Source: an uncultured Collinsella sp. (lineage in GTDB: Bacteria > Actinomycetota > Coriobacteriia > Coriobacteriales > Coriobacteriaceae). Taken from it: 64,000 nt of DNA. The notes under the pieces are model-generated. The model ran no database searches and had not been told where the DNA came from. It worked only from the letters and a program-made list of their open reading frames with translations. Positions 5,812-60,437 of this stretch are shown here, piece after piece (within the stretch, counting starts at the first letter, position 1; each line of letters starts with the position of its first letter). The position numbers and the translations under genes are program-made. Where the stretch lies: NCBI GenBank assembly GCA_937942395.1, contig CALDEU010000060.1:34699-98698 (forward strand), given 5' to 3'.

Positions 5812-5942
5812 CGGACCTGGGCGGGCGTATGGGGCAACATCGCCTGCTCGGGCAGTCCTGCGCAAGACGGAGGCCACATTAAGTGGCCTCCTTTGCGTGC
5901 GGAACTCGCGATCGATGTTGCCCCATACGCCCGCCCAGGTCC
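5812..5942. repeat. 30-bp perfect inverted repeat (5812-5841 / 5913-5942) enclosing an inner terminator-like hairpin (5868-5890, followed by a T-tract).
   Basis: Seen directly. The outer arms are exact reverse complements. Confidence 0.6.
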
Positions 5943-8095: not shown

Positions 8096-9049
8096 ATGGA
8101 ACCTAAGCAGTATTACATCGGCATTGACGTCGGCGGCACTTCGGTCAAGGAGGGCCTGTTCGACGAAGACGGTAACCTGCTTGCCAAGGCCAGCGTGCCT
8201 ACGCCTCCTATCGTTGACGCTGCGGGCTTTGCCGCGGTGACCGAGGCTATCGACCAGGTGGTCGCCAAGGCGCAGATTCCGCGCGCCTTTGTGGCAGGCA
8301 TTGGCCTGGCCGTTCCGTGCCCCATTCCGGCGTCGGGCGATGCCAAGGTCAAGGCCAACATTGCCATTAACCTGCCCAAGCTGAGGATCGCCATTCAGGA
8401 GCACTGCCCCGACGCGGTCGTTAAGTACGAGAACGATGCCAACGCCGCTGCCATGGGCGAGGCCTGGCTCGGTTCTGCCAAGGGCGTACAGAACGTGGTG
8501 ATGGTCACCATTGGCACCGGCGTGGGCGGCGGCGTTATCGTTAACGGCGACGTGGTGTCGGGCGTTGTGGGTGCTGGCGGCGAGATTGGCCACATGTGCC
8601 TGAACCCGGCTGAGGAGCGCACCTGCGGCTGTGGCGGCCATGGCCACCTGGAGCAGTATTCCAGTGCCACCGGCGTGGTGAGCAACTACCTTGCCGAGTG
8701 CAAGAAAGCGGGCGTCGAGCCCATCGAGCTCACCGGCCCCTCCGATTCCAAGGACGTGTTCCAGGCCTGCCGCGAGGGCGACAAGCTCGCGCTGGCCGCG
8801 GCCGACACCATGGCCGACTATCTCGGCCGTGCCCTGGCGCTTATTGCCAACGTGGTCGACCCCGAGATGTTCCTGATCGGTGGCGGCGCGTCCGCTTCGG
8901 CCGATGTCTACCTCGACAAGGTCCGCGAGCACTTTAAGCAATACGCGCTTTCCGCCTCGCGCGAGACGCCCATTAAGGTCGCTTCGCTCGGAAACGACGC
9001 CGGCATCATCGGTGCCGCCTACGTAGCCCTGCGCGCCGCCGGTAAATAG
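8096..9049 (+). CDS. glcK: ROK-family glucokinase.
   Basis: IGIDVGGT N-terminal motif and the ROK zinc motif (GHMCL...CGCGGHGHLE). RBS upstream of ATG 8096. Confidence 0.8.
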   Translation: MEPKQYYIGIDVGGTSVKEGLFDEDGNLLAKASVPTPPIVDAAGFAAVTEAIDQVVAKAQIPRAFVAGIGLAVPCPIPASGDAKVKANIAINLPKLRIAIQEHCPDAVVKYENDANAAAMGEAWLGSAKGVQNVVMVTIGTGVGGGVIVNGDVVSGVVGAGGEIGHMCLNPAEERTCGCGGHGHLEQYSSATGVVSNYLAECKKAGVEPIELTGPSDSKDVFQACREGDKLALAAADTMADYLGRALALIANVVDPEMFLIGGGASASADVYLDKVREHFKQYALSASRETPIKVASLGNDAGIIGAAYVALRAAGK

Positions 9050-9215
9050 TCGGTGCAAGGGGGTCAGGTTACTTTGCACCAACATGGTGCAAAAGGGACA
9101 GCCTTGGCCCCCTTGTCTGCCCCAAAATATGCCGCGGCCCTTCCGTCTGCGAGGGCTCGGCATCGGCGTGCTACCATAGCTACGTCCAAGTACACATATC
9201 AAGTGGAGGATATCC

Positions 9216-10139
9216 ATGGCAAACGTTCTTGTCTTTGGTCACCAGAACCCCGATAACGACGCCATCATGAGCGCCGTCGTCCTGTCCCAGCTGCTCAACC
9301 AGGTTGAGTATGCCGGCAACACCTACGAGGCCTGCGCCCTTGGCCAGCTTCCGGCCGAGTCCGCCAAGCTGCTCGCCGACGCCGGCATCGCCGAGCCTCG
9401 CGTGATCGAGTCCGTCGAGGCCGGTCAGCTCGTCGTCCTCACCGACCACAACGAGTCCGCCCAGTCCGTCGCCGGCCTTAAGGACGCCACGGTCTTTGGC
9501 GTTGTCGATCATCACCGCATCGGCGACTTCGAGACCGCCGGCCCGCTGCACTACATCTGCCTGCCCTGGGGCTCCAGCTGCACCATCGTCACCAAGCTCG
9601 CCGGCGTGCTCGGCGTTGAGCTTTCCGACGTTCAGGCCAAGCTGCTGCTCTCGGCCATGATGACCGACACGCTCATGCTCAAGAGCCCCACCACCACCGA
9701 TGTCGACCGCGCCGTCGCCGCCAAGCTCGGCGAGCAGGTGGGCGTCGACCCGGTCAAGTTTGGCATGGAAGTCTTCCTCACCCGCCCGTCCGGCTCCTTC
9801 ACCGCAGCCGAGATGGTCGGCAACGACATCAAGATGTTCGAGCCCGCCGGCAAGAAGCTGCTCATCGGCCAGTACGAGACTGTCGACAAGACCCGCGCAC
9901 TCGGCATGATCGACGAGATTCGCGAGGCCATGCGCGCCTACGCCGCTGAGAAAGGTGCCGACGGCATCGTCCTGTGCATCACTGACATCATGGAGGAGGG
10001 CTCGCAGGTCCTGCTCGAGGGCGAGACCGAGGCCGCTCAGAAGGGCCTGGGCATTGCCGACGAGCACGACGGCGTCTGGATGCCGGGCGTCCTCTCCCGT
10101 AAGAAGCAGGTCGCTGCCCCCATCATGGCCGCCTGCTAG
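9216..10139 (+). CDS. ppaC: Manganese-dependent inorganic pyrophosphatase (family II, DHH/DHHA2).
   Basis: FGHQNPDxD and DHHR motifs. Near-collinear similarity to family II PPases, including C-terminal GVxSRKKQVxP. Confidence 0.9.
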   Translation: MANVLVFGHQNPDNDAIMSAVVLSQLLNQVEYAGNTYEACALGQLPAESAKLLADAGIAEPRVIESVEAGQLVVLTDHNESAQSVAGLKDATVFGVVDHHRIGDFETAGPLHYICLPWGSSCTIVTKLAGVLGVELSDVQAKLLLSAMMTDTLMLKSPTTTDVDRAVAAKLGEQVGVDPVKFGMEVFLTRPSGSFTAAEMVGNDIKMFEPAGKKLLIGQYETVDKTRALGMIDEIREAMRAYAAEKGADGIVLCITDIMEEGSQVLLEGETEAAQKGLGIADEHDGVWMPGVLSRKKQVAAPIMAAC

Positions 10140-10160
10140 GTTTAGTTGACCAAGCGCCAC

Positions 10161-10198
10161 GACCGGACCGCGGACGCCCCGCGCTCCGGTCGTTTTTT
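10161..10198 (+). terminator. Rho-independent terminator after ppaC.
   Basis: GC-rich hairpin GACCGGACCGCGG...CGCTCCGGTCG followed by TTTTTTG. Confidence 0.6.
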
Positions 10199-10241
10199 GT
10201 GCACGGCGCCGCGTCGTCTCTTGGACAGGTATGCCCGTGCC

Positions 10242-10262
10242 GTTGAACAAATAATGTTCAAC
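10242..10262. promoter_or_regulatory. Perfect palindrome GTTGAACA-AATAA-TGTTCAAC upstream of nhaA. Candidate operator.
   Basis: Seen directly. Lies ~150 bp upstream of the nhaA start. Confidence 0.35.
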
Positions 10263-10406
10263 CTGTGGTTCCGCTTTTCGGCCACGCCTGCGTGCTTGTC
10301 GTGCAGGGTAGGCTAGATGCAAGCGTAATACGTTAGAGCGCGGCGCCGCCACTTGGGCGGGCCGTGCTTTTTTAAGACGGGAGCTTTCCCGTGAAAGGAG
10401 CCGCCC

Positions 10407-11765
10407 ATGGCAGCAACTGAGCAGCTGTTCAACGTTCGTGAGCGCAAGCGCTTTGAACGTCACGACATCTGGGAGCGCATCGCCGAGAACGGCACGATTT
10501 CCGCCGCCGTCATGGTCTTCGCCGCCATCGCCGCCGTCATTTGCGCCAATACCGATGCCTACGAGGCCATCCATCACTTTTTGGAGACCCCGCTGTATGT
10601 GGGTCTGGGCAACCTTACGGCCGGTCTCACCGTCGAGCTTTTCGTCAACGACTTCCTCATGGCGATTTTCTTTTTGCTGGTGGGCATTGAGCTCAAGTAT
10701 GAGATGACGGTCGGCGAGCTCAAAAACCCGCGCCAGGCTATGCTTCCCATGCTGGCGGCCGTGGGCGGCGTCGTCGTTCCCGCCTGCATCTATCTGATCT
10801 TTAACCATGCCGGCGCGCACAACGGCTGGGCCATTCCCATGGCAACCGATATTGCCTTTGCGCTGGGCGTGCTGTCGCTTTTGGGTAATCGCGTGCCCAA
10901 CGGCGTGCGCGTGTTCTTCTCGACGCTCGCCATCGCCGACGACCTCATTTCCATCGCCGCCATCGCCATCTTCTACGGTCAGAGCCCCAATCCGTTTTGG
11001 TTGGGCGCCGCCGCGCTTGTGACCTGCGCGCTCGTGTGGCTCAACAAGACGCAGCATTACCGCCTTGCCCCGTATTCGGTACTGGGTCTGCTGCTGTGGT
11101 TCTGCATGTTCAAGAGCGGCGTACATGCCACGCTTGCTGGTGTCATCTTGGCCTTTACCATCCCGGCCAAGTGCGGCGTCAAGCTCGATAGCCTCACCGA
11201 TTGGTTGGGCGAGTGCCTGCCGCTGCTCGACGACCGCTACGACGACGAGGCGCACATCTTGGGCCAGCATGACTTTACCGTCTCGACCACCAAGGTCGAG
11301 CGCGTCATGCACCGCGTGACCCCGCCGCTCATCCGCATGGAGCGTCTGATCTCCACGCCGGTCAACTTTGTGATCCTGCCGATCTTTGCGTTCGTGAACG
11401 CACAGGTTCGCCTAGTGGGCGTGGACATGAGCACACTACTCACCGACCCGGTGACGCTCGGCGTGTACTTTGGCATGCTGCTGGGCAAGCCGATCGGCAT
11501 CTTTGGTATGACGTTCGCCTTGGTCAAGCTCAAGATTTCCGAGCTGCCGCGCAATGTCAACTGGCACATGATTGCCGGTGTGGGCATTCTGGGCGGCATC
11601 GGCTTTACCATGTCGATTCTCATCAGCGGCCTTGCCTTCCCGACGGCCCAGTTTGAGGTCCTGGCCGCCAAGGCCGCCATCCTTGCCGGTTCGGTCACCG
11701 CTGCCGTGCTCGGCATGATCTACATGAGCGTGGTCTGCAAACACCCCGCGCCCAAAGACGAGTAA
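10407..11765 (+). CDS. nhaA: Na+/H+ antiporter NhaA.
   Basis: 452 aa polytopic membrane protein with characteristic NhaA motifs (IADDLISIAAIAIFY; GGIGFTMSI). Confidence 0.9.
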   Translation: MAATEQLFNVRERKRFERHDIWERIAENGTISAAVMVFAAIAAVICANTDAYEAIHHFLETPLYVGLGNLTAGLTVELFVNDFLMAIFFLLVGIELKYEMTVGELKNPRQAMLPMLAAVGGVVVPACIYLIFNHAGAHNGWAIPMATDIAFALGVLSLLGNRVPNGVRVFFSTLAIADDLISIAAIAIFYGQSPNPFWLGAAALVTCALVWLNKTQHYRLAPYSVLGLLLWFCMFKSGVHATLAGVILAFTIPAKCGVKLDSLTDWLGECLPLLDDRYDDEAHILGQHDFTVSTTKVERVMHRVTPPLIRMERLISTPVNFVILPIFAFVNAQVRLVGVDMSTLLTDPVTLGVYFGMLLGKPIGIFGMTFALVKLKISELPRNVNWHMIAGVGILGGIGFTMSILISGLAFPTAQFEVLAAKAAILAGSVTAAVLGMIYMSVVCKHPAPKDE

Positions 11766-12032
11766 GAGCGCGAAAACCGGCTCCAGAACCGATTCGGGCG
11801 CGTTCAAAATGCGGATTCGGGCGGTGCTTGCCGCCTGCCAGACACGCCGGTGGTCAAAAAACGCCGTTTGTGAGTACTGTCACAAACGGCGTTTCATTTT
11901 AGGTATGGAAAATAATGAACAAAGTTATAAGAACTGTACGTTAATGAGTGATCATCGACTTCCAATTTGGCGCTAGCTGACGGTGATTAGGGAGTTTCAA
12001 GTCGAGTTTTGCCGATTTCGACCAAGAATCGC

Positions 12033-12067
12033 TGCTACTAAAAAGGCAACAGTACTCATATTTGCCC
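12033..12067. repeat. Solo copy of the 35-bp terminal inverted repeat of the MITE-like element at 27811-28003.
   Basis: CTGCTACTAAAAAGGCAACAGTACTCATATTTGCC versus CTGCTACTAAATTGGTGACAGTACTCATATTTGCC at 27969-28003. Confidence 0.55.
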
Positions 12068-12138
12068 TTTTTTGGCCACAAGCCCTAAAACAAGCCTCGC
12101 CAGGGTCGGGAAGCGGGCCAAATCGTCGGCCTCGAGGC

Positions 12139-12393
12139 TTATTCCACCGTTCCGTAGACGGCGCCCCAGCCGTGGGCGGCCAAGGCGGAGTTGAGCTGGT
12201 CGCAAAGCGATTGGCGGTCGTAGTAGCCGGGCGGCAAAAGGTTCACGATTTCCATGAGATCGGGCGCCAGGTCCAAGATCTCGGCCTGTACGATGAGATC
12301 CAGGCGGTCGATGGCGTGGCGGTCGTAAAACAGTCCGTCGACCAGGCGCTGCAGGTCGCCGAATTCCTCGGCCTGGAACGATCCGTACTCCAT
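12139..12393 (-). CDS. Hypothetical small protein (84 aa). No recognisable family.
   Basis: High GC3 codon bias. AAGGAGG RBS 5 nt upstream of ATG 12393. Product: MEYGSFQAEEFGDLQRLVDGLFYDRHAIDRL... Confidence 0.5.
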   Translation of the reverse strand: MEYGSFQAEEFGDLQRLVDGLFYDRHAIDRLDLIVQAEILDLAPDLMEIVNLLPPGYYDRQSLCDQLNSALAAHGWGAVYGTVE

Positions 12394-19580: not shown

Positions 19581-19586
19581 CTTCTA

Positions 19587-19654
19587 AGTTGCGGTGAAAT
19601 AGGGACTGTTTTTGCTGGCAAAAGGCCTAATTGATCCCTATTTCACCGCAAGTT
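19587..19654. repeat. Family-A palindromic repeat, copy 1: AAGTTGCGGTGAAATAGGGA...TCCCTATTTCACCGCAAGTT, ~18-bp arms and ~28-nt loop.
   Basis: Seen directly. Related copies at 21975-22042 and 62069-62137. Confidence 0.65.
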
Positions 19655-19671
19655 ATGATCAGTTGTTGGGA

Positions 19672-21036: not shown

Positions 21037-21975
21037 ATGTTGACCGGAGCGCTTGCCTCGGTGATGAGTCTTGGCGGTTGTGCCGCGCGCCGCAACGAGG
21101 CTGAGGGTTCCGCTGTCTCTGTCAAACAAACGTCAAAGCGGTCATCCGCGACAAAAGCGACGGCCGCCCCTAAGTCTTCTTGGATTGCCGCCATTCAGCA
21201 AGATATCGAGGCCCTGGTCGAGCCGTATGGCGACTCCGTCTCGGTTTACTCCGTGGCGCTTGATCCTCAAACGTTCGCGTCGCTCGATGGTGAAGTCGCT
21301 GTGGCGCCGGACGCGCGACATGTGGCGGCAAGCATCATCAAGCTTCCCATTCTCGCTTGTGCGCTCGAGACCGTGACGGCGGGCGGGCTGTCCCTCGACG
21401 AGCAGATAACGGTAACGCAGCAGGATATCGTGGGTGGCAGCGGCAACATTCAGTCGCGCGGCGCGGGTGTGTCGTACAGTATTGACGAGCTGCTGCACGC
21501 TATGATCGCCCAGAGCGATAACGTGGCAGCGAACCTTGTTATCGGCAGGCTTGGCATGGATACGGTCAACGAAACGTGCGCCGCATTGGGACTGACCCAG
21601 ACCGTGCTCGCTCGTTTGATGATGGACACCGAGGCCCAGGCACAAGGTCGCGAGAACTATACGAGCGCCCGTGATGCTGCGGCTGTGTTGCAACGGCTGG
21701 CGGCGGGGACAATCGCGACGCCCGAGCTGTGCGAGCGAGCGCGCGGATATCTGCTGGCGCAGGAAGACGCACGCGGTATTGTCGAAGGCGTTCCCGGCGG
21801 CGTTTTGGTCGCGCACAAAACGGGCAGCCTGGCGAATGCTCAGCACGATGCCGCAATCGTCTACGCCGAGCGCCCTTACGTGCTGGCAATCCTCACCCAA
21901 GACCTCGAACGCGAGCAGGCCCTAGCCCTCGAGCGCGATATTTCCTTCGCCATCAACGCCCGCGCCCACTCCTAA
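21037..21975 (+). CDS. Class A beta-lactamase-like serine hydrolase. Probable lipoprotein.
   Basis: Lipobox LGGC; S-x-x-K (SIIK), SDN and KTG motifs in the canonical order. Confidence 0.75.
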   Translation: MLTGALASVMSLGGCAARRNEAEGSAVSVKQTSKRSSATKATAAPKSSWIAAIQQDIEALVEPYGDSVSVYSVALDPQTFASLDGEVAVAPDARHVAASIIKLPILACALETVTAGGLSLDEQITVTQQDIVGGSGNIQSRGAGVSYSIDELLHAMIAQSDNVAANLVIGRLGMDTVNETCAALGLTQTVLARLMMDTEAQAQGRENYTSARDAAAVLQRLAAGTIATPELCERARGYLLAQEDARGIVEGVPGGVLVAHKTGSLANAQHDAAIVYAERPYVLAILTQDLEREQALALERDISFAINARAHS

Positions 21976-22042
21976 CTTGCGGTGAAATAGGGATTGTATT
22001 TGCTGCTAGAAGGCGTATTCAGTCCCTATTTCACCGCAACTT
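21975..22042. repeat. Family-A palindromic repeat, copy 2.
   Basis: AACTTGCGGTGAAATAGGGATTG...CAGTCCCTATTTCACCGCAACTT. Same orientation and loop-sequence similarity to copy 1. Confidence 0.65.
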
Positions 22043-22061
22043 TGGAAAGGCACCTTTAGCC

Positions 22062-22140
22062 GTTGGGGACGTTCTTAAACGACTAGTCATTAACGAACGT
22101 CCCCAACGACTAGTCATTTAAGAACGTCCCCAATGACTAG
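22062..22140. repeat. Family-B tandem repeat, locus 1: three head-to-tail ~27-bp units GACTAGTCATT-(T)AA(C/G)GAACGTCCCCAA.
   Basis: Seen directly. No spacers between units. Related loci at 48738-48923 and 62145-62172. Confidence 0.65.
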
Positions 22141-26644: not shown

Positions 26645-27763
26645 GTGATTCGTGTGGCGGTAAAGATTGAGCGGTGCAACGAGCCGACAGGCGAACAGCT
26701 AGCGGCTTCCGCAATCCTAACAGGCGCCTCGGCGTTGCGCATGATTCGAGCCGAGCGTCGGCAGATGGGCTACATCGGCTGGAAGGACCTCAATCCCGAT
26801 GAAGAGCGCCGCGTGCTGTGTACGTCATCGCCTTCGACCGAGGATATCTATCTTCCCGACCTGGTGCGAATTGGAGCCAAAAGCGGCGAGGTGCAAGAAG
26901 ATCTGTGCTTGCTGGTGGGATCTGCGGCGCAGCGCCGACGCATGCCTGGCGTGGGCTGGTCCGTGTGTTCCGGGTTGCCTGTCGGCTCGATTCTAGAGGT
27001 GGAACCGGGGGTGTACAGCCTATCTCCCGAGGCCCTTTGTGTTGCCGTCGCCCGCGAGGTCGACTGTATCCAGGCGTTTGCACTGGCCCAGGAACTGTGT
27101 TCCAAGATTTCACTAAGCGATCGCGGGAAGTATCTGCCTCCCTACACCTCGCCTGTTGCGAATAGACTTGCAAAGGATAAGGACCAACCGGCAGACGTGG
27201 GCTACTTTGAAGTCGAGCCGGTGCTGACGCCCGATCGCCTGGCAGATTACCTTGCGGCATGCAAGGGGAGTGCGGCCAAACAACTGCTACGCCTGTGTCC
27301 CTACCTGTCAGAAAACCTGCGCTCACCCATGGAGTGCATCATGCTTGCCATGTTTTCGCTTCCGTTTTCCTATGGCGGATTTGCCTGCGGTCCCTTTAAG
27401 ACCGACTACAAGATCGAGTTCGATGACCGCGCGCAGGCAATCTCGGGGATGTCGCATGCAGTTTGCGATGCGTATCAGGAGGCAGCCCGGTTTGACCTGG
27501 AATACAACGGTGAGCTGGGCCATTCCTCCCGGAGGGGACGTATTCATGATGAAAAACGCAACACGGGCTTGATTACTATGGGAATCGAGGTCGCGACGGT
27601 CAACAACGAAATGCTCTGCGACATGGAAGCGATGGAAGCGCTCGCATGGCGCATTTACCAACGCATGGGTAAGCGATATCAGAATCGCGTAGAGGCGCGT
27701 CGAAAGAGGCAAGATGCTCTGCTGAATACGCTCCGAGCGTGCTTTGGGCTCAAGCCGGCGTAA
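26645..27763 (+). CDS. Hypothetical protein (372 aa) of unknown family. Start uncertain.
   Basis: Long ORF with coding-like codon usage and slightly lower GC than neighbours. No motif I can assign. Confidence 0.5.
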   Translation: MIRVAVKIERCNEPTGEQLAASAILTGASALRMIRAERRQMGYIGWKDLNPDEERRVLCTSSPSTEDIYLPDLVRIGAKSGEVQEDLCLLVGSAAQRRRMPGVGWSVCSGLPVGSILEVEPGVYSLSPEALCVAVAREVDCIQAFALAQELCSKISLSDRGKYLPPYTSPVANRLAKDKDQPADVGYFEVEPVLTPDRLADYLAACKGSAAKQLLRLCPYLSENLRSPMECIMLAMFSLPFSYGGFACGPFKTDYKIEFDDRAQAISGMSHAVCDAYQEAARFDLEYNGELGHSSRRGRIHDEKRNTGLITMGIEVATVNNEMLCDMEAMEALAWRIYQRMGKRYQNRVEARRKRQDALLNTLRACFGLKPA

Positions 27764-27810
27764 AACTATGGCTTTATAGGGGGTCTGTTTATATGCCCTG
27801 TGCAAAAAAC

Positions 27811-28003
27811 GGCAAATATGAGTATTGTTACTAGATTAGTAGCAGTAAAAACAAAGAAACTTGGGCCGAAAATTTGGATTCATTGAAGAGATAATAAACG
27901 AATGTGGAATATCTTGGCGCCAAGCAGGTTGTGCGGAACTCAAAAAGGGCTCGCGGGGCGGAAAAACGCTGCTACTAAATTGGTGACAGTACTCATATTT
28001 GCC
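27811..28003. mobile_element. MITE-like element, 193 bp, with 35-bp terminal inverted repeats GGCAAATATGAGTAYTGT...TTAGTAGCAG. No transposase.
   Basis: Left TIR 27811-27845 and right TIR 27969-28003 are reverse complements (about 5 mismatches). AT-rich core. A solo TIR is at 12033-12067. Confidence 0.55.
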
Positions 28004-28136
28004 GTAATTTGCACACGGCACCCTGAGGCGGGTGCCCCGGAGCTCCCCGTAGGGGAGCTCCGGGCTTCATGGGGGCACGAATGGTCCGCTCCGACCTGCA
28101 AAATCTGTGCTCACGGTGCGAATGACGCCCCTAACC

Positions 28137-28165
28137 TTAAACTTTAGCTTGAACTTAGCTATAAT
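28137..28165 (+). promoter_or_regulatory. Sigma70-like promoter: TTAAAC, 17-bp spacer, TATAAT. It drives a ~320-nt leader ahead of the SBP lipoprotein gene.
   Basis: Near-consensus -35/-10 with optimal spacing, seen directly. Confidence 0.45.
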
Positions 28166-28495
28166 GCGCTACGTTCCTGCCAGGCTGTGGTTGCGGACGG
28201 ACGAAATGTCCATCCTAGTCCAAGACAGACGCGGTCAAAGGGATCCACGTAAGCGACCGCGTGCGCGCGGCGCGATCATGGCGCGTCCTAGATGTAAGCC
28301 GCACCGTCCGTTCTACTTTCTTTGGGGCAATACCGCCTCGCGGGCGAGCGGGCCAGTCGTGAAGGTGGCTATGGCCTCCCGAGCAAACACCCCGGTGCGC
28401 AAGTGTGGGGTCAAATACCAGGTCAGCTGGTGGGAACACCCGTTATTCCGCGCAACGCACGGATTGTATACGACACAGAAGGCAGGGTAGTGGAC

Positions 28496-36081: not shown

Positions 36082-36195
36082 AGAGTCGCACGGCTCATCG
36101 AGCATCTAGCCGATAGACAGCAGAAAGTCCGCCAGTACGGAAGTCGTTCTGGCGGACTTTTTGCGTTGAGGGCGTGATTGGCGGCTTAATTATGG

Positions 36196-36435
36196 CTATT
36201 CATCTTTAAGTCCAAAAAGGCTATCGGCTTCATCGTCGGATATATATTCCAGTACATCGCCCGGTTGGCAGTCGAGTGCCCGACATATCGCGTCAAGAGT
36301 TGAAAAACGTATGGCAGAAACCTTGCCCGTCTTAATGCGTGACATATTGACCTGGGAGATGCCCACGCGTTCCGCAAGCTCTTTGGATGAGATCTTGCGT
36401 TCGGCGAGCATGCGGTCAAGCCGCAGAATAATCAT
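36196..36435 (-). CDS. XRE-family HTH transcriptional regulator (YozG-like).
   Basis: 79 aa; LAERVGISQVNMSRIKTGK HTH motif. Confidence 0.85.
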   Translation of the reverse strand: MIILRLDRMLAERKISSKELAERVGISQVNMSRIKTGKVSAIRFSTLDAICRALDCQPGDVLEYISDDEADSLFGLKDE

Positions 36436-48271: not shown

Positions 48272-48766
48272 ATGGCTCAACCCAAGATTCTTCTCACACG
48301 CATCGATGACCGGTTTATTTACGGGCAAGACGTTGAGCTGTGGAACGAAGTCGTGGGTTCCAACCTTGTTTTAATCGTCAACGATGAGATTGCGGCTGAT
48401 TCGCGCAAGTGGGCCCCTATGAGGGTGGCGACACCCGAGGGTGTCTGGACGCGGTTTTTCTCGGTGCAAAGGACTGTCGACATCATTCATACCGCAACGC
48501 CGCGCCAAAGGATTCTCATCATGGTGGCGTCGCCCACGGATGCACTCGCGCTGGTTAAGGGCGGTGTGCCGATCACCAAGATCAGCATTGGCCATATGCA
48601 GGCGGGGGAGGGCAAGCACCCCATAACGCCCGCAGTCGCCGTAGACGATACGGACATCGCTGCCTTCAAAGAGCTACAAGAACTCGGCATAGAGCTAGAA
48701 ATCCGTTACCTCCCCAGCTCCAATCCCGACCCCATCCAACTAGTCATTGGGGACGTTCTTAAATGA
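48272..48766 (+). CDS. Orphan PTS Man-family EIIB paralog with an altered C-terminus. The last 11 codons and the stop codon lie inside a family-B repeat.
   Basis: ~60% aa identity to the IIB at 38548-39030 up to ...ELEIRYLPSS, then repeat-derived sequence NPDPIQLVIGDVLK*. Confidence 0.7.
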   Translation: MAQPKILLTRIDDRFIYGQDVELWNEVVGSNLVLIVNDEIAADSRKWAPMRVATPEGVWTRFFSVQRTVDIIHTATPRQRILIMVASPTDALALVKGGVPITKISIGHMQAGEGKHPITPAVAVDDTDIAAFKELQELGIELEIRYLPSSNPDPIQLVIGDVLK

Positions 48767-48923
48767 CTAGTCAAACGGGACACCCTTGGCACTTGGGGAC
48801 GTTCCTTATGTGCCGGCCTTTTAGGAACGTCCCCAAGTGTCGGCAGATTGGGACAGTCCTTCTCGCCAAACGTTAAAGACTGTCCCCAATGACTAGTCAT
48901 TTAAGAACGTCCCCAATGACTAG
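48738..48923. repeat. Family-B repeat, locus 2: multiple direct and inverted GGGGACGTTC / GACTAGTCATT units forming nested hairpins.
   Basis: Seen directly. Includes the hairpin CTTGGGGACGTTCCTTA...TAGGAACGTCCCCAAG. Confidence 0.65.
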
Positions 48924-48929
48924 GTAGAA

Positions 48930-51737: not shown

Positions 51738-51963
51738 TCGTCTCAATCTGTAACAGTTGGGATCGAAAAACTCGGCTAGATGTTACAGATTGAGATTAAA
51801 GGGATTGACCTGTGGCGTTTGTCTCGATCTGTAACAGTTAGACGGTCGAAAGTGGGCTACGTGTTACAGATTGAGATCTTTCAGCCCTGGTCGCCCGTTC
51901 GTCTAAATCTATAACAGTTAGGATTGAAAATCCCTGCTAGATGTTACAAATCGAGACAAACGG
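51738..51963. repeat. Family-C palindromic repeats: three tandem ~62-bp units, each GTCTCAATCTGTAACAG-loop-CTGTTACAGATTGAGAC.
   Basis: Seen directly at 51738-51797, 51817-51879 and 51897-51963. A fourth copy is at 56625-56692. Confidence 0.65.
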
Positions 51964-56624: not shown

Positions 56625-56692
56625 TGTCTGTCTCAATCTGTAACAGCTAGGACCGAAAAACTCGGCTAGTTGTTACAGATCGAGACAAACGT
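56625..56692. repeat. Family-C palindromic repeat, copy 4: ~24-bp arms and a palindromic loop CCGAAAAACTCGG.
   Basis: Seen directly. Downstream of both lacI#1 and GH1#2. Confidence 0.65.
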
Positions 56693-60080: not shown

Positions 60081-60142
60081 GCAAAGCTCCTAAGAGTCGG
60101 TGGGTTGGCAACGATGGTAGCTTTTGACGTTTGGTTGCCAAA

Positions 60143-60278
60143 ATGTTGACGTTGCCATTTTGCGACACAAAATAAGACGCGAACCGATGGCCCCTGTGCC
60201 TGTGGACCGTCGATTCCTTGCGCGTAAACGTTTGAGCCGCCCGGTGGCTCTGTGTTTGCACAATGGCAACGTTAACAT
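60143..60278. promoter_or_regulatory. LacI-family operators ATGGCAACGTCAACAT (60143-60158, reverse orientation) and ATGGCAACGTTAACAT (60263-60278).
   Basis: 16-bp pseudo-palindromes matching the LacI consensus. Lie between lacE#2 and lacI#2. Confidence 0.55.
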
Positions 60279-60437
60279 TTGGTCGACAAAAGCTGTTCGG
60301 GGAAGCAAAAATGTCGGTGAACGGTAGGTTTTGGGTGGTGAGCGTATGGTGGGGGAGGCGTTGGATATACTTGAAGGCGTTAAAAATGACTGCGTAGGGT
60401 GTCACCAATGGCATCGTTGACATAGAAAGATCGACCT

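Follow-up and report, generated by a model that had tools for sequence, protein, structure and literature searches.

Does a short inverted repeat between genes of an uncultured Collinsella sp., from a genus common in the human gut, belong to a transposon that still moves, or has it become a fixed part of the chromosome? We addressed this question in a 64,000-nt stretch of that genome, referred to here as the window, and in related loci from across the genus. The original prediction, made from the window by itself, described an AT-rich MITE bounded by near-perfect 35-bp terminal inverted repeats (TIRs), with a third TIR standing alone elsewhere in the window and the whole family mobilised in trans.

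The window carries two complete elements

An inverted-repeat search confirmed the repeat, recovering 52-nt arms at 27794-27845 and 27969-28020 that are 85% complementary and separated by 123 nt. Calling the TIRs near-perfect was generous, since 27811-27845 (plus strand) and 27969-28003 (minus strand) match at 30 of 35 positions. The window contains three copies each of the 18-mer core ACAGTACTCATATTTGCC and of the 35-mer, whereas dinucleotide shuffles predict 0.00-0.02, indicating that the repeat is real and not a product of chance. Counting in the conserved outer 13 nt gives better bounds for this element (element 1) of 27798-28016 (219 bp; Table 1). As predicted, element 1 is AT-rich (41% GC in a window of ~60% GC) and lacks a transposase; it is also devoid of coding signal. 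The gene order at this locus is comFC-like gene, orphan 372-aa gene, element 1, two hairpins, raiA RNA, solute-binding protein gene and hpf/raiA, and element 1 has orthologs at 13 other Collinsella loci.

The supposedly solo TIR, at 12032-12066, pairs with a degenerate inverted arm at 11850-11897 to form a second element of 230 bp (element 2). The degenerate arm was found in two ways: by the inverted-repeat search (31 nt, 77%, 168 nt apart) and with an nhmmer profile of 58 arms (E=7e-4 in the 64-kb window). This profile detected exactly four arms in the window, which therefore carries two complete elements, 27798-28016 and 11850-12079.

Table 1. Positions of the two elements, their parts and their neighbours in the window
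Feature	Position	Strand	Remarks
Element 2, complete	11850-12079		230 bp, ~22 helical turns
Element 2, left arm, degenerate	11850-11897	+	Outer GTGGTCAAAAAAC (outer 13 nt) and TGAGTACTGTCAC kept; nhmmer E=7e-4
Element 2, right arm (first described as a solo TIR)	12031-12079	-	nhmmer E=2.1e-16
Orphan gene, 372 aa	26645-27763	+	Ends 35 nt before element 1
Flank module of element 1, AACTATGGCTTTATAGGGGGTCTGTTTATATGCC	27764-27797	-	Recurs beside one arm at several other loci
Element 1, complete inverted-repeat element	27798-28016		219 bp, 41% GC, ~21 helical turns
Element 1, left arm	27798-27847	+	30-nt core CTGTGCAAAAAACGGCAAATATGAGTATTGT, then inner part TACTAGATTAGTAGCAG; nhmmer E=1.7e-13
Element 1, spacer	27848-27966		Sequence largely unconstrained except for conserved block AAGAGATAATAAACGAATGTGGAAT; A/T tracts phased at ~10.6 bp
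Element 1, right arm, inverted copy	27967-28016	-	nhmmer E=3.9e-14
Two GC-rich hairpins directly outside the right arm	28017-28064	+	Between element 1 and the raiA RNA promoter
raiA-motif RNA	28175-28435	+	Rfam RF03072, 145.7 bits; ~160 nt downstream of element 1

Element 2 sits between the 3' ends of nhaA (plus strand, ending at 11765) and a conserved 84-aa gene (minus strand, ending at 12139), both of which are backed by gene calls in relatives. The part of its left arm that is not kept has changed to form the nhaA terminator hairpin (AACGCCGTTTGTGA-GTACTG-TCACAAACGGCGTT). The nhaA terminator of L130, a relative without the element, resembles this hybrid arm, indicating that the arm fused with the terminator or was reshaped into it. 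Both the window lineage and L131 (NhaA 93% identical) carry the element, which is absent where NhaA is 75-87% identical (L121-L126, L128, L130 and L120). L121-L126, L128 and L130 keep the pair of nhaA and the small gene with spacers that are free of arms, whereas in L120 the downstream neighbour is another one. Intergenic regions in these relatives have diverged too far to yield a clean empty site or a target-site duplication at the nhaA locus.

Paired arms recur across Collinsella at the 3' ends of genes

We scanned one genome per species with the query GGCAAATATGAGTAYTGT and obtained at least 119 loci of ~8 kb; an exact-core search of this kind would have missed decayed, unphased copies of arbitrary length. 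Among these loci, those named by taxon all come from Collinsella or Coriobacteriaceae, except for one mislabelled MAG, and a few are titled only "uncultured bacterium". Allowing for mismatches, the arms form at least 103-105 inverted pairs, and the unpaired arms among the listed matches are all cut by the ends of loci. The family elements among these matches are all paired, intergenic and free of a transposase. Extending the TIR search beyond the window bore out a repeated, transposase-less element family, with more than 100 paired, TIR-bounded and non-coding Collinsella copies and at least 119 loci that carry it, although not its solo member.

By their flanks the elements form at least 22 clusters, and they occupy at least 14 gene contexts, each of which is common to many species. 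Thirteen contexts could be scored for gene orientation: eight are convergent, five are tandem and none is divergent (P ~0.006 for the convergent excess). Four contexts lie just downstream of tRNA genes. Judging by gene names assigned from sequence, the flanking genes appear to be functionally unrelated. Single genomes hold multiple dispersed copies, with two elements in the 64-kb window and seven arms in a 900-kb C. aerofaciens record; the latter number suggests a low copy number of about ten elements per genome. A phage origin was rejected, as the four matches in viral contigs come from host DNA that flanks prophages next to tRNA-Gln and tRNA-Glu loci. A literature search returned no description of a Collinsella MITE or of this repeat family, and none of phased or curved bacterial MITEs.

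Elements are conserved in place

The copies are old and located at orthologous positions at the 3' ends of genes, where selection maintains them. Within orthologous families, the arm core has the lowest pairwise difference (0.033), followed by the inner arm (0.058), the interior (0.081) and the 30-nt flanks (0.147), such that arm cores evolve 2.5-4.5 times more slowly than interiors and flanks. The interior of element 1 can be aligned with that of its C. aerofaciens ortholog over 119 columns without a gap, at 59% identity; NhaA proteins of the window lineage and C. aerofaciens are only ~80% identical.

Inverted repeats around a short segment could also be the work of a site-specific recombinase that flips the 120-170 bp between them. 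An inverton would be at home in a gut bacterium, and an arm sequence common to many loci recalls a master invertase regulon. However, in assembly-level comparisons orthologous interiors were in the same orientation in 279 cases and inverted in none, the elements face the 3' ends of genes rather than their starts, and the arms lack the internal dyad that recombinase core sites have. We consider an inverton scarcely credible.

Element lengths and A/T phase follow the DNA helix

Total element lengths are quantised at 209, 219-220 or 229-231 bp. In 29 representative loci, the distance between the arm anchors took only the values 149, 159-160 or 169-170 nt. Interiors from different loci in this set cannot be aligned, their median identity being 0.507, as compared with 0.50 for shuffled sequences. 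Their A/T content nevertheless oscillates with a period of 10.5-10.6 bp (z of 31-38 relative to shuffles, and of 25 for the central 110 nt), and mean periodicity power is 1.87 in the interiors versus 0.33-0.38 in flanking DNA and other low-GC windows. The oscillation is in phase among unrelated interiors and is continuous with the A-tracts of the arms. In 29 of 29 elements the fitted period was 10.55-10.7, and in all 29 the first A/T peak lay 8-9 nt from the outer end. With period and first peak shared in this way, the A6 tracts of left and right arm lie 18, 19 or 20 periods apart. For A/T periodicity, each of the two window elements ranks within the top 1% of the window.

A simple static wedge model predicted an end-to-end/contour ratio of 0.84 for the elements and 0.93-0.95 for controls. 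This modest static curvature indicates that the pattern is better described as anisotropic bendability in helical register. A Cro/C1-type HTH gene in the window (36190-36435, minus strand) has 10.6-nt A/T periodicity as strong as that of the elements, presumably due to its coding for a helical protein; hence, 10.6-nt A/T periodicity alone is not specific to curved DNA. Coding for a small protein or an amphipathic helix was rejected as the source of periodicity in the elements, which have no excess of open frames: their stop-free stretches measure 56 codons, as compared with 51 +/- 11.5 codons in shuffles.

Arm anatomy and readings based on transcription

A 30-nt core, GTGGnCAAAAAAnGGCAAATATGAGTACTGT, is common to the two arms and, except at its n positions, hardly varies among more than 100 elements. 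Inward of the core, each arm has ~18 less conserved bases, and these inner halves differ systematically between the arms: one reads yACCwTTTTAGTArCAG and the other usually TGCyA...TAGTATCAT. At the raiA locus, both arms of the element are of the yACCwTTTTAGTArCAG kind. The core is not palindromic, and the possible inner pairing CTGTnAC..GTnACAG is not kept by covariation. We considered the arm as a sigma-54, DnaA-box, dif/Xer or LexA-box motif and rejected each, with defining positions variable or spacing wrong. We also rejected the arm as a protein C-terminus ending at the TGA within it, since the variable positions are not third codon positions.

Several families have an additional flank module on one side that reads TATAAC-TAACCCCC-TATAG outward. 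Together with TTGCCA in the arm, this module resembles a Collinsella promoter in sequence, our reference being a consensus -35 of TTGCGN and -10 of TAnnnT inferred from regions upstream of tRNA genes. At element 1 the promoter-like pair is on the minus strand and comprises TTGCCG at 27810-27815, within the arm, and TATAAA at 27788-27793, 16 nt apart; it would aim antisense into the upstream gene. The elements might therefore be promoter cassettes or small-RNA loci, with an outward -35 TTGCCA and a -10 in the flank, or an inward TGGnCA-18-TACTGT; they would make transcripts that are short or antisense, with phased A/T tracts serving as upstream curved-DNA activators. In keeping with this, TTGCCN fits the TTGCGN form of the -35 upstream of tRNA genes, several families have at one end a TATAAC, TATAAA or TATGAT box placed 16-17 nt outward, one subfamily has an internal hairpin and T-run ~45-90 nt from an arm, and some elements precede a gene by 53-56 nt (ptsH, an SPFH-family gene). 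By contrast, most elements face convergent gene 3' ends, where outward transcripts would be antisense only, and the flank -10 is missing at most ends. A consensus scan of 27600-28400 gave neither a promoter nor a terminator, and no Rfam family matches the element. A promoter function also leaves unexplained the obligatory inverted pairing at a quantised distance, and we regard it as improbable. We can rule out that element 1 is the promoter of the raiA RNA, because that RNA has its own -10, TATAAT at 28160-28165, which lies ~145 nt downstream of the element behind the two hairpins and is conserved in an alignment of 13 orthologous Collinsella loci.

Arms that are read through would fold into a stem of ~36-50 bp, which could act in RNA as a 3' stabiliser, an RNase III site or a terminator. 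The stem is predicted on both strands (-99 and -89 kcal/mol, z of about -10 to -12), the elements are at gene 3' ends, and the two outer variable positions tend to match between arms, with agreement of 0.97 and 0.70 versus 0.70 and 0.46 expected. The other variable positions, however, show no covariation, and a stem would require neither strict conservation of the core sequence nor inner halves that differ systematically between the arms. Moreover, genuine terminator hairpins usually lie between the gene and the element, and both 10.6-bp periodicity and length steps of 10 bp belong to duplex DNA rather than to RNA. Arm sequence, spacing and phase are constrained at the level of double-stranded DNA, and we find a function in RNA very improbable.

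Tests for mobility

If the elements were mobilised in trans, target-site duplications and an insertion sequence (IS) with matching TIRs might be expected. Neither was found in the sequences searched. For direct repeats of k=5-9, none of 85 elements with distinct flanks had a duplication at offsets from -6 to +6. For k=3-4, single offsets gave at most 4/85 and 7/85, as compared with 0.4-1.2 expected; these cases are scattered and do not amount to a consistent duplication. No full-length IS with matching TIRs was present in the at least 119 loci, the 900-kb C. aerofaciens record, or plasmid and phage collections. Two unusually long TIR pairs were considered as autonomous elements and rejected; both are ordinary elements with secondary IS200-like or IS256-like insertions that have their own ends. 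At L043 (5830-6600), an IS200-like tnpA unit with its own hairpin ends is inside an element and is absent from the ortholog L088. At L084 (3213-4697), the insertion is IS256-like, with its own TIRs (GGTAGCGCGCAGAGATGTGGTGTAAGAG) and a duplication of ~9 bp. The element at L051 (4073-4292) differs from its orthologs by an exact 10-bp deletion that falls exactly at the IS256 target occupied in L084, and this deletion may be an excision footprint.

We also looked for recent transposition and found no two elements with similar interiors and both flanks unrelated. Several elements share one flank only; in these, a rearrangement or assembly breakpoint falls at the arm, due either to recombination between arms or, for MAGs, to mis-assembly. 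The arms are thus repeats of 30-48 bp that coincide with such breakpoints in Collinsella genomes. At L014 (7377-7595), a chimera joins the flank of the tRNA-Gln locus to the raiA-locus element. The DAHP-synthase gene beside the ABC-transporter element lies inverted in two isolates (L002/L010 compared with L044/L061).

These data bear on whether the family is a genuine MITE, mobilisable now or until recently by a transposase encoded elsewhere, whose insertions are old and fixed. TIRs, whole helical turns and a phased spacer would then be what transposition demands of a very short element, for end synapsis or for a ~220-bp circle in copy-out-paste-in transposition. The anatomy agrees with this: a 30-nt core in both arms, a length of 209-231 bp, no ORF and multiple dispersed copies. 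Lengths of ~20, 21 and 22 x 10.5 bp are those that strain-free circularisation of a short DNA, or synapsis of its ends, would favour, presence or absence at the nhaA locus varies by lineage, and insertions that are tolerated typically sit at gene 3' ends. The outermost of the most conserved bases are TG...CA (positions -17/-16), and such ends are common to many DDE transposons. On the other side, in addition to the missing duplications, autonomous partner and twice-flanked interiors, copy number is low. Although paralogous interiors have reached saturation, nearly all orthologous sites retain both arms intact, and the cores evolve 2.5 times more slowly than interiors; neutral, dead copies would not show such a pattern, which counts against this explanation. 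We regard a MITE that is or recently was mobile as doubtful, although it is the main rival to the architectural reading given below. Of the predicted MITE signature, the anatomy fits, whereas mobility in trans found no support. Given the orthologous sites, slowly evolving arms, quantised lengths and phased spacers, "mobilised in trans" at best describes the origin of the family, which was probably a MITE.

Two known repeat classes invite comparison. Like the Correia/NEMIS MITEs of Neisseria, the Collinsella elements are short, non-coding, intergenic, dispersed and bounded by TIRs, may carry outward promoter-like boxes and would form a long hairpin if transcribed. Unlike them, they have no target-site duplication, whereas Correia elements duplicate TA; they number roughly 10 per genome rather than hundreds and have no matching IS among the sequences searched. 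They also differ in being orthologously fixed with conserved arms, and in a spacer of fixed length and phase but free sequence. To our knowledge, such a combination of fixed spacer length and helical phase with free sequence has not been described for MITEs. REPINs of the REP-RAYT system likewise consist of two highly conserved inverted sequences around a less conserved spacer, are extragenic, often lie between convergent genes and persist vertically for long periods. However, Collinsella arms lack the form of short GTAG-headed palindromes, covariation does not support a hairpin within them, and the elements are longer and far less numerous. No RAYT gene (IS200-like Y1) is flanked by Collinsella arms, the only IS200-like tnpA, that of L043, being a secondary insertion.

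A putative architectural element

Spacer length and phase are fixed while spacer sequence is free, which argues for selection on DNA mechanics and not on sequence. We lean towards the view, while holding it slightly more doubtful than not, that the family is a MITE-derived architectural element in which a putative protein brings the arms together on a helically phased, bendable spacer. A sequence-specific protein would bind both arms. Standing whole helical turns apart on an anisotropically bendable spacer, the bound arms would close into a small loop or wrap of ~20-22 turns. Placed mostly between convergent transcription units or after tRNA genes, the resulting arm complex would then most plausibly form a topological or transcriptional barrier, or a topoisomerase entry site.

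Several observations weigh against an architectural role. The intrinsic curvature from the static wedge model is only moderate. Quantised length and phasing could come from a few master copies or from the transposition mechanism, with no host function. The spacers of two elements have taken up IS insertions and one arm in the window has degenerated, indicating that single copies are dispensable; the nhaA-locus element is missing in many lineages, and the 10-bp length difference at L051 is the possible excision footprint noted above.

In E. coli, a 130-bp gyrase motif has periodic AT/GC flanks with a phase of ~10.5 bp that is attributed to DNA wrapping, and gyrase binds intergenic BIME-2 repeats downstream of transcription units (PMC6379681). 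More generally, the BIME-1/RIP and BIME-2 repeats of E. coli are intergenic, lie at the 3' ends of transcription units, and bind IHF and gyrase. The Collinsella elements likewise have an intergenic 3'-end location and phased AT/GC content that is consistent with wrapping, and the gyrase motif and BIME-2 are their nearest documented analogues. The likeness does not extend to sequence, in which BIMEs and the gyrase motif are unrelated to the Collinsella elements; in addition, the phased region of the latter is ~220 bp long and ends in sequence-specific arms that gyrase would not read.

Loops formed by AraC at araO2-araI and by the GalR/HU repressosome have sites placed whole turns apart, and tolerate changes in spacing of ~10-11 bp but not of ~5 bp. 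The Collinsella elements likewise have two sites a whole number of turns apart, a likeness that is limited to the way such a loop works. AraC and GalR loops enclose specific operon promoters, once per regulon member, whereas the Collinsella element is a dispersed repeat at gene ends without a known regulator.

The retention of arm sequence, 10-bp length steps and 10.6-bp A/T phase at dozens of independent loci where spacer similarity has been lost makes the family a clean natural experiment. If a host protein closes the loops, the elements would be dispersed, sequence-defined architectural or topological elements in a bacterium, and the management of supercoiling between convergent genes would become testable at defined sites. 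If instead a transposase imposes the constraints, the family would illustrate the limits that mechanics set on how very short transposons can be built.

A probably genus-restricted gene beside element 1

The orphan gene upstream of element 1 encodes a protein that has no match in Pfam, NCBIfam or PDB. Only 142 homologs were found among 5.8 billion proteins, all at least 77% identical; we take these to be from Collinsella, based on the level of identity and on the place of the gene in Collinsella loci. On that basis, the gene is as genus-restricted as the element family. An AlphaFold2 model of the protein had a pLDDT of 36 and was unusable. The C-terminal stretch FDLEYNGELGH...DEKRN...G.EV loosely resembles a DUF559/Vsr-like nuclease motif. 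We consider the protein a possible reader of the arms, as a lead rather than a result. The architectural reading could be extended to a more specific and speculative picture, about which we are more sceptical than hopeful: ~ten hard-wired DNA micro-loops per chromosome, each a domesticated MITE with a spacer of 20-22 exact turns, would have their arms clamped by a genus-specific protein, possibly the orphan encoded 35 nt from element 1, and would serve as topological insulators or topoisomerase landing pads between convergent units.

Other repeats in the window and in related loci

The Collinsella genome of the window is rich in small palindromic repeats. A second repeat family consists of a ~29-nt hairpin, TAGTCRTTGGGGACGTTCTTAAAYGACTA, that often occurs as inverted or tandem intergenic pairs; it is present in the window at 22057-22139 and 48735-48928, and also lies beside elements in L042, L044, L109 and L130. 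Two further families of intergenic inverted repeats are TAAGTTGCGGTGAAATAGGGA, at 19585-19655 and 21970-22046, and GTCTCGATCTGTAACAGnTAG, at 51773-51962 and 56626-56690. The window also contains a perfect 30-nt inverted repeat with a 70-nt spacer (5813-5942) and a 34-nt inverted repeat (60130-60291). In other Collinsella lineages, the spacer downstream of nhaA holds a tandem ~37-nt unit (CCGTCCGGCACGG...CTCTCGAATACCT; L121, 4357-4475) or an inverted repeat (AAACGAGTTATTGGTATCA / TGATACCAATAACTCGTTT; L120, 4430-4640).

At the tRNA loci, L134 contains a prophage end with reverse-transcriptase-like and lysin-like ORFs (8379-11972) beside the tRNA-Gln locus. Antisense fragments that resemble tRNA 3' ends (GGGATTCGAACCCGACAGGGTGCGGA...) follow the tRNA terminators in L003, L014, L019, L026, L040 and L047, and are probably att-site remnants.
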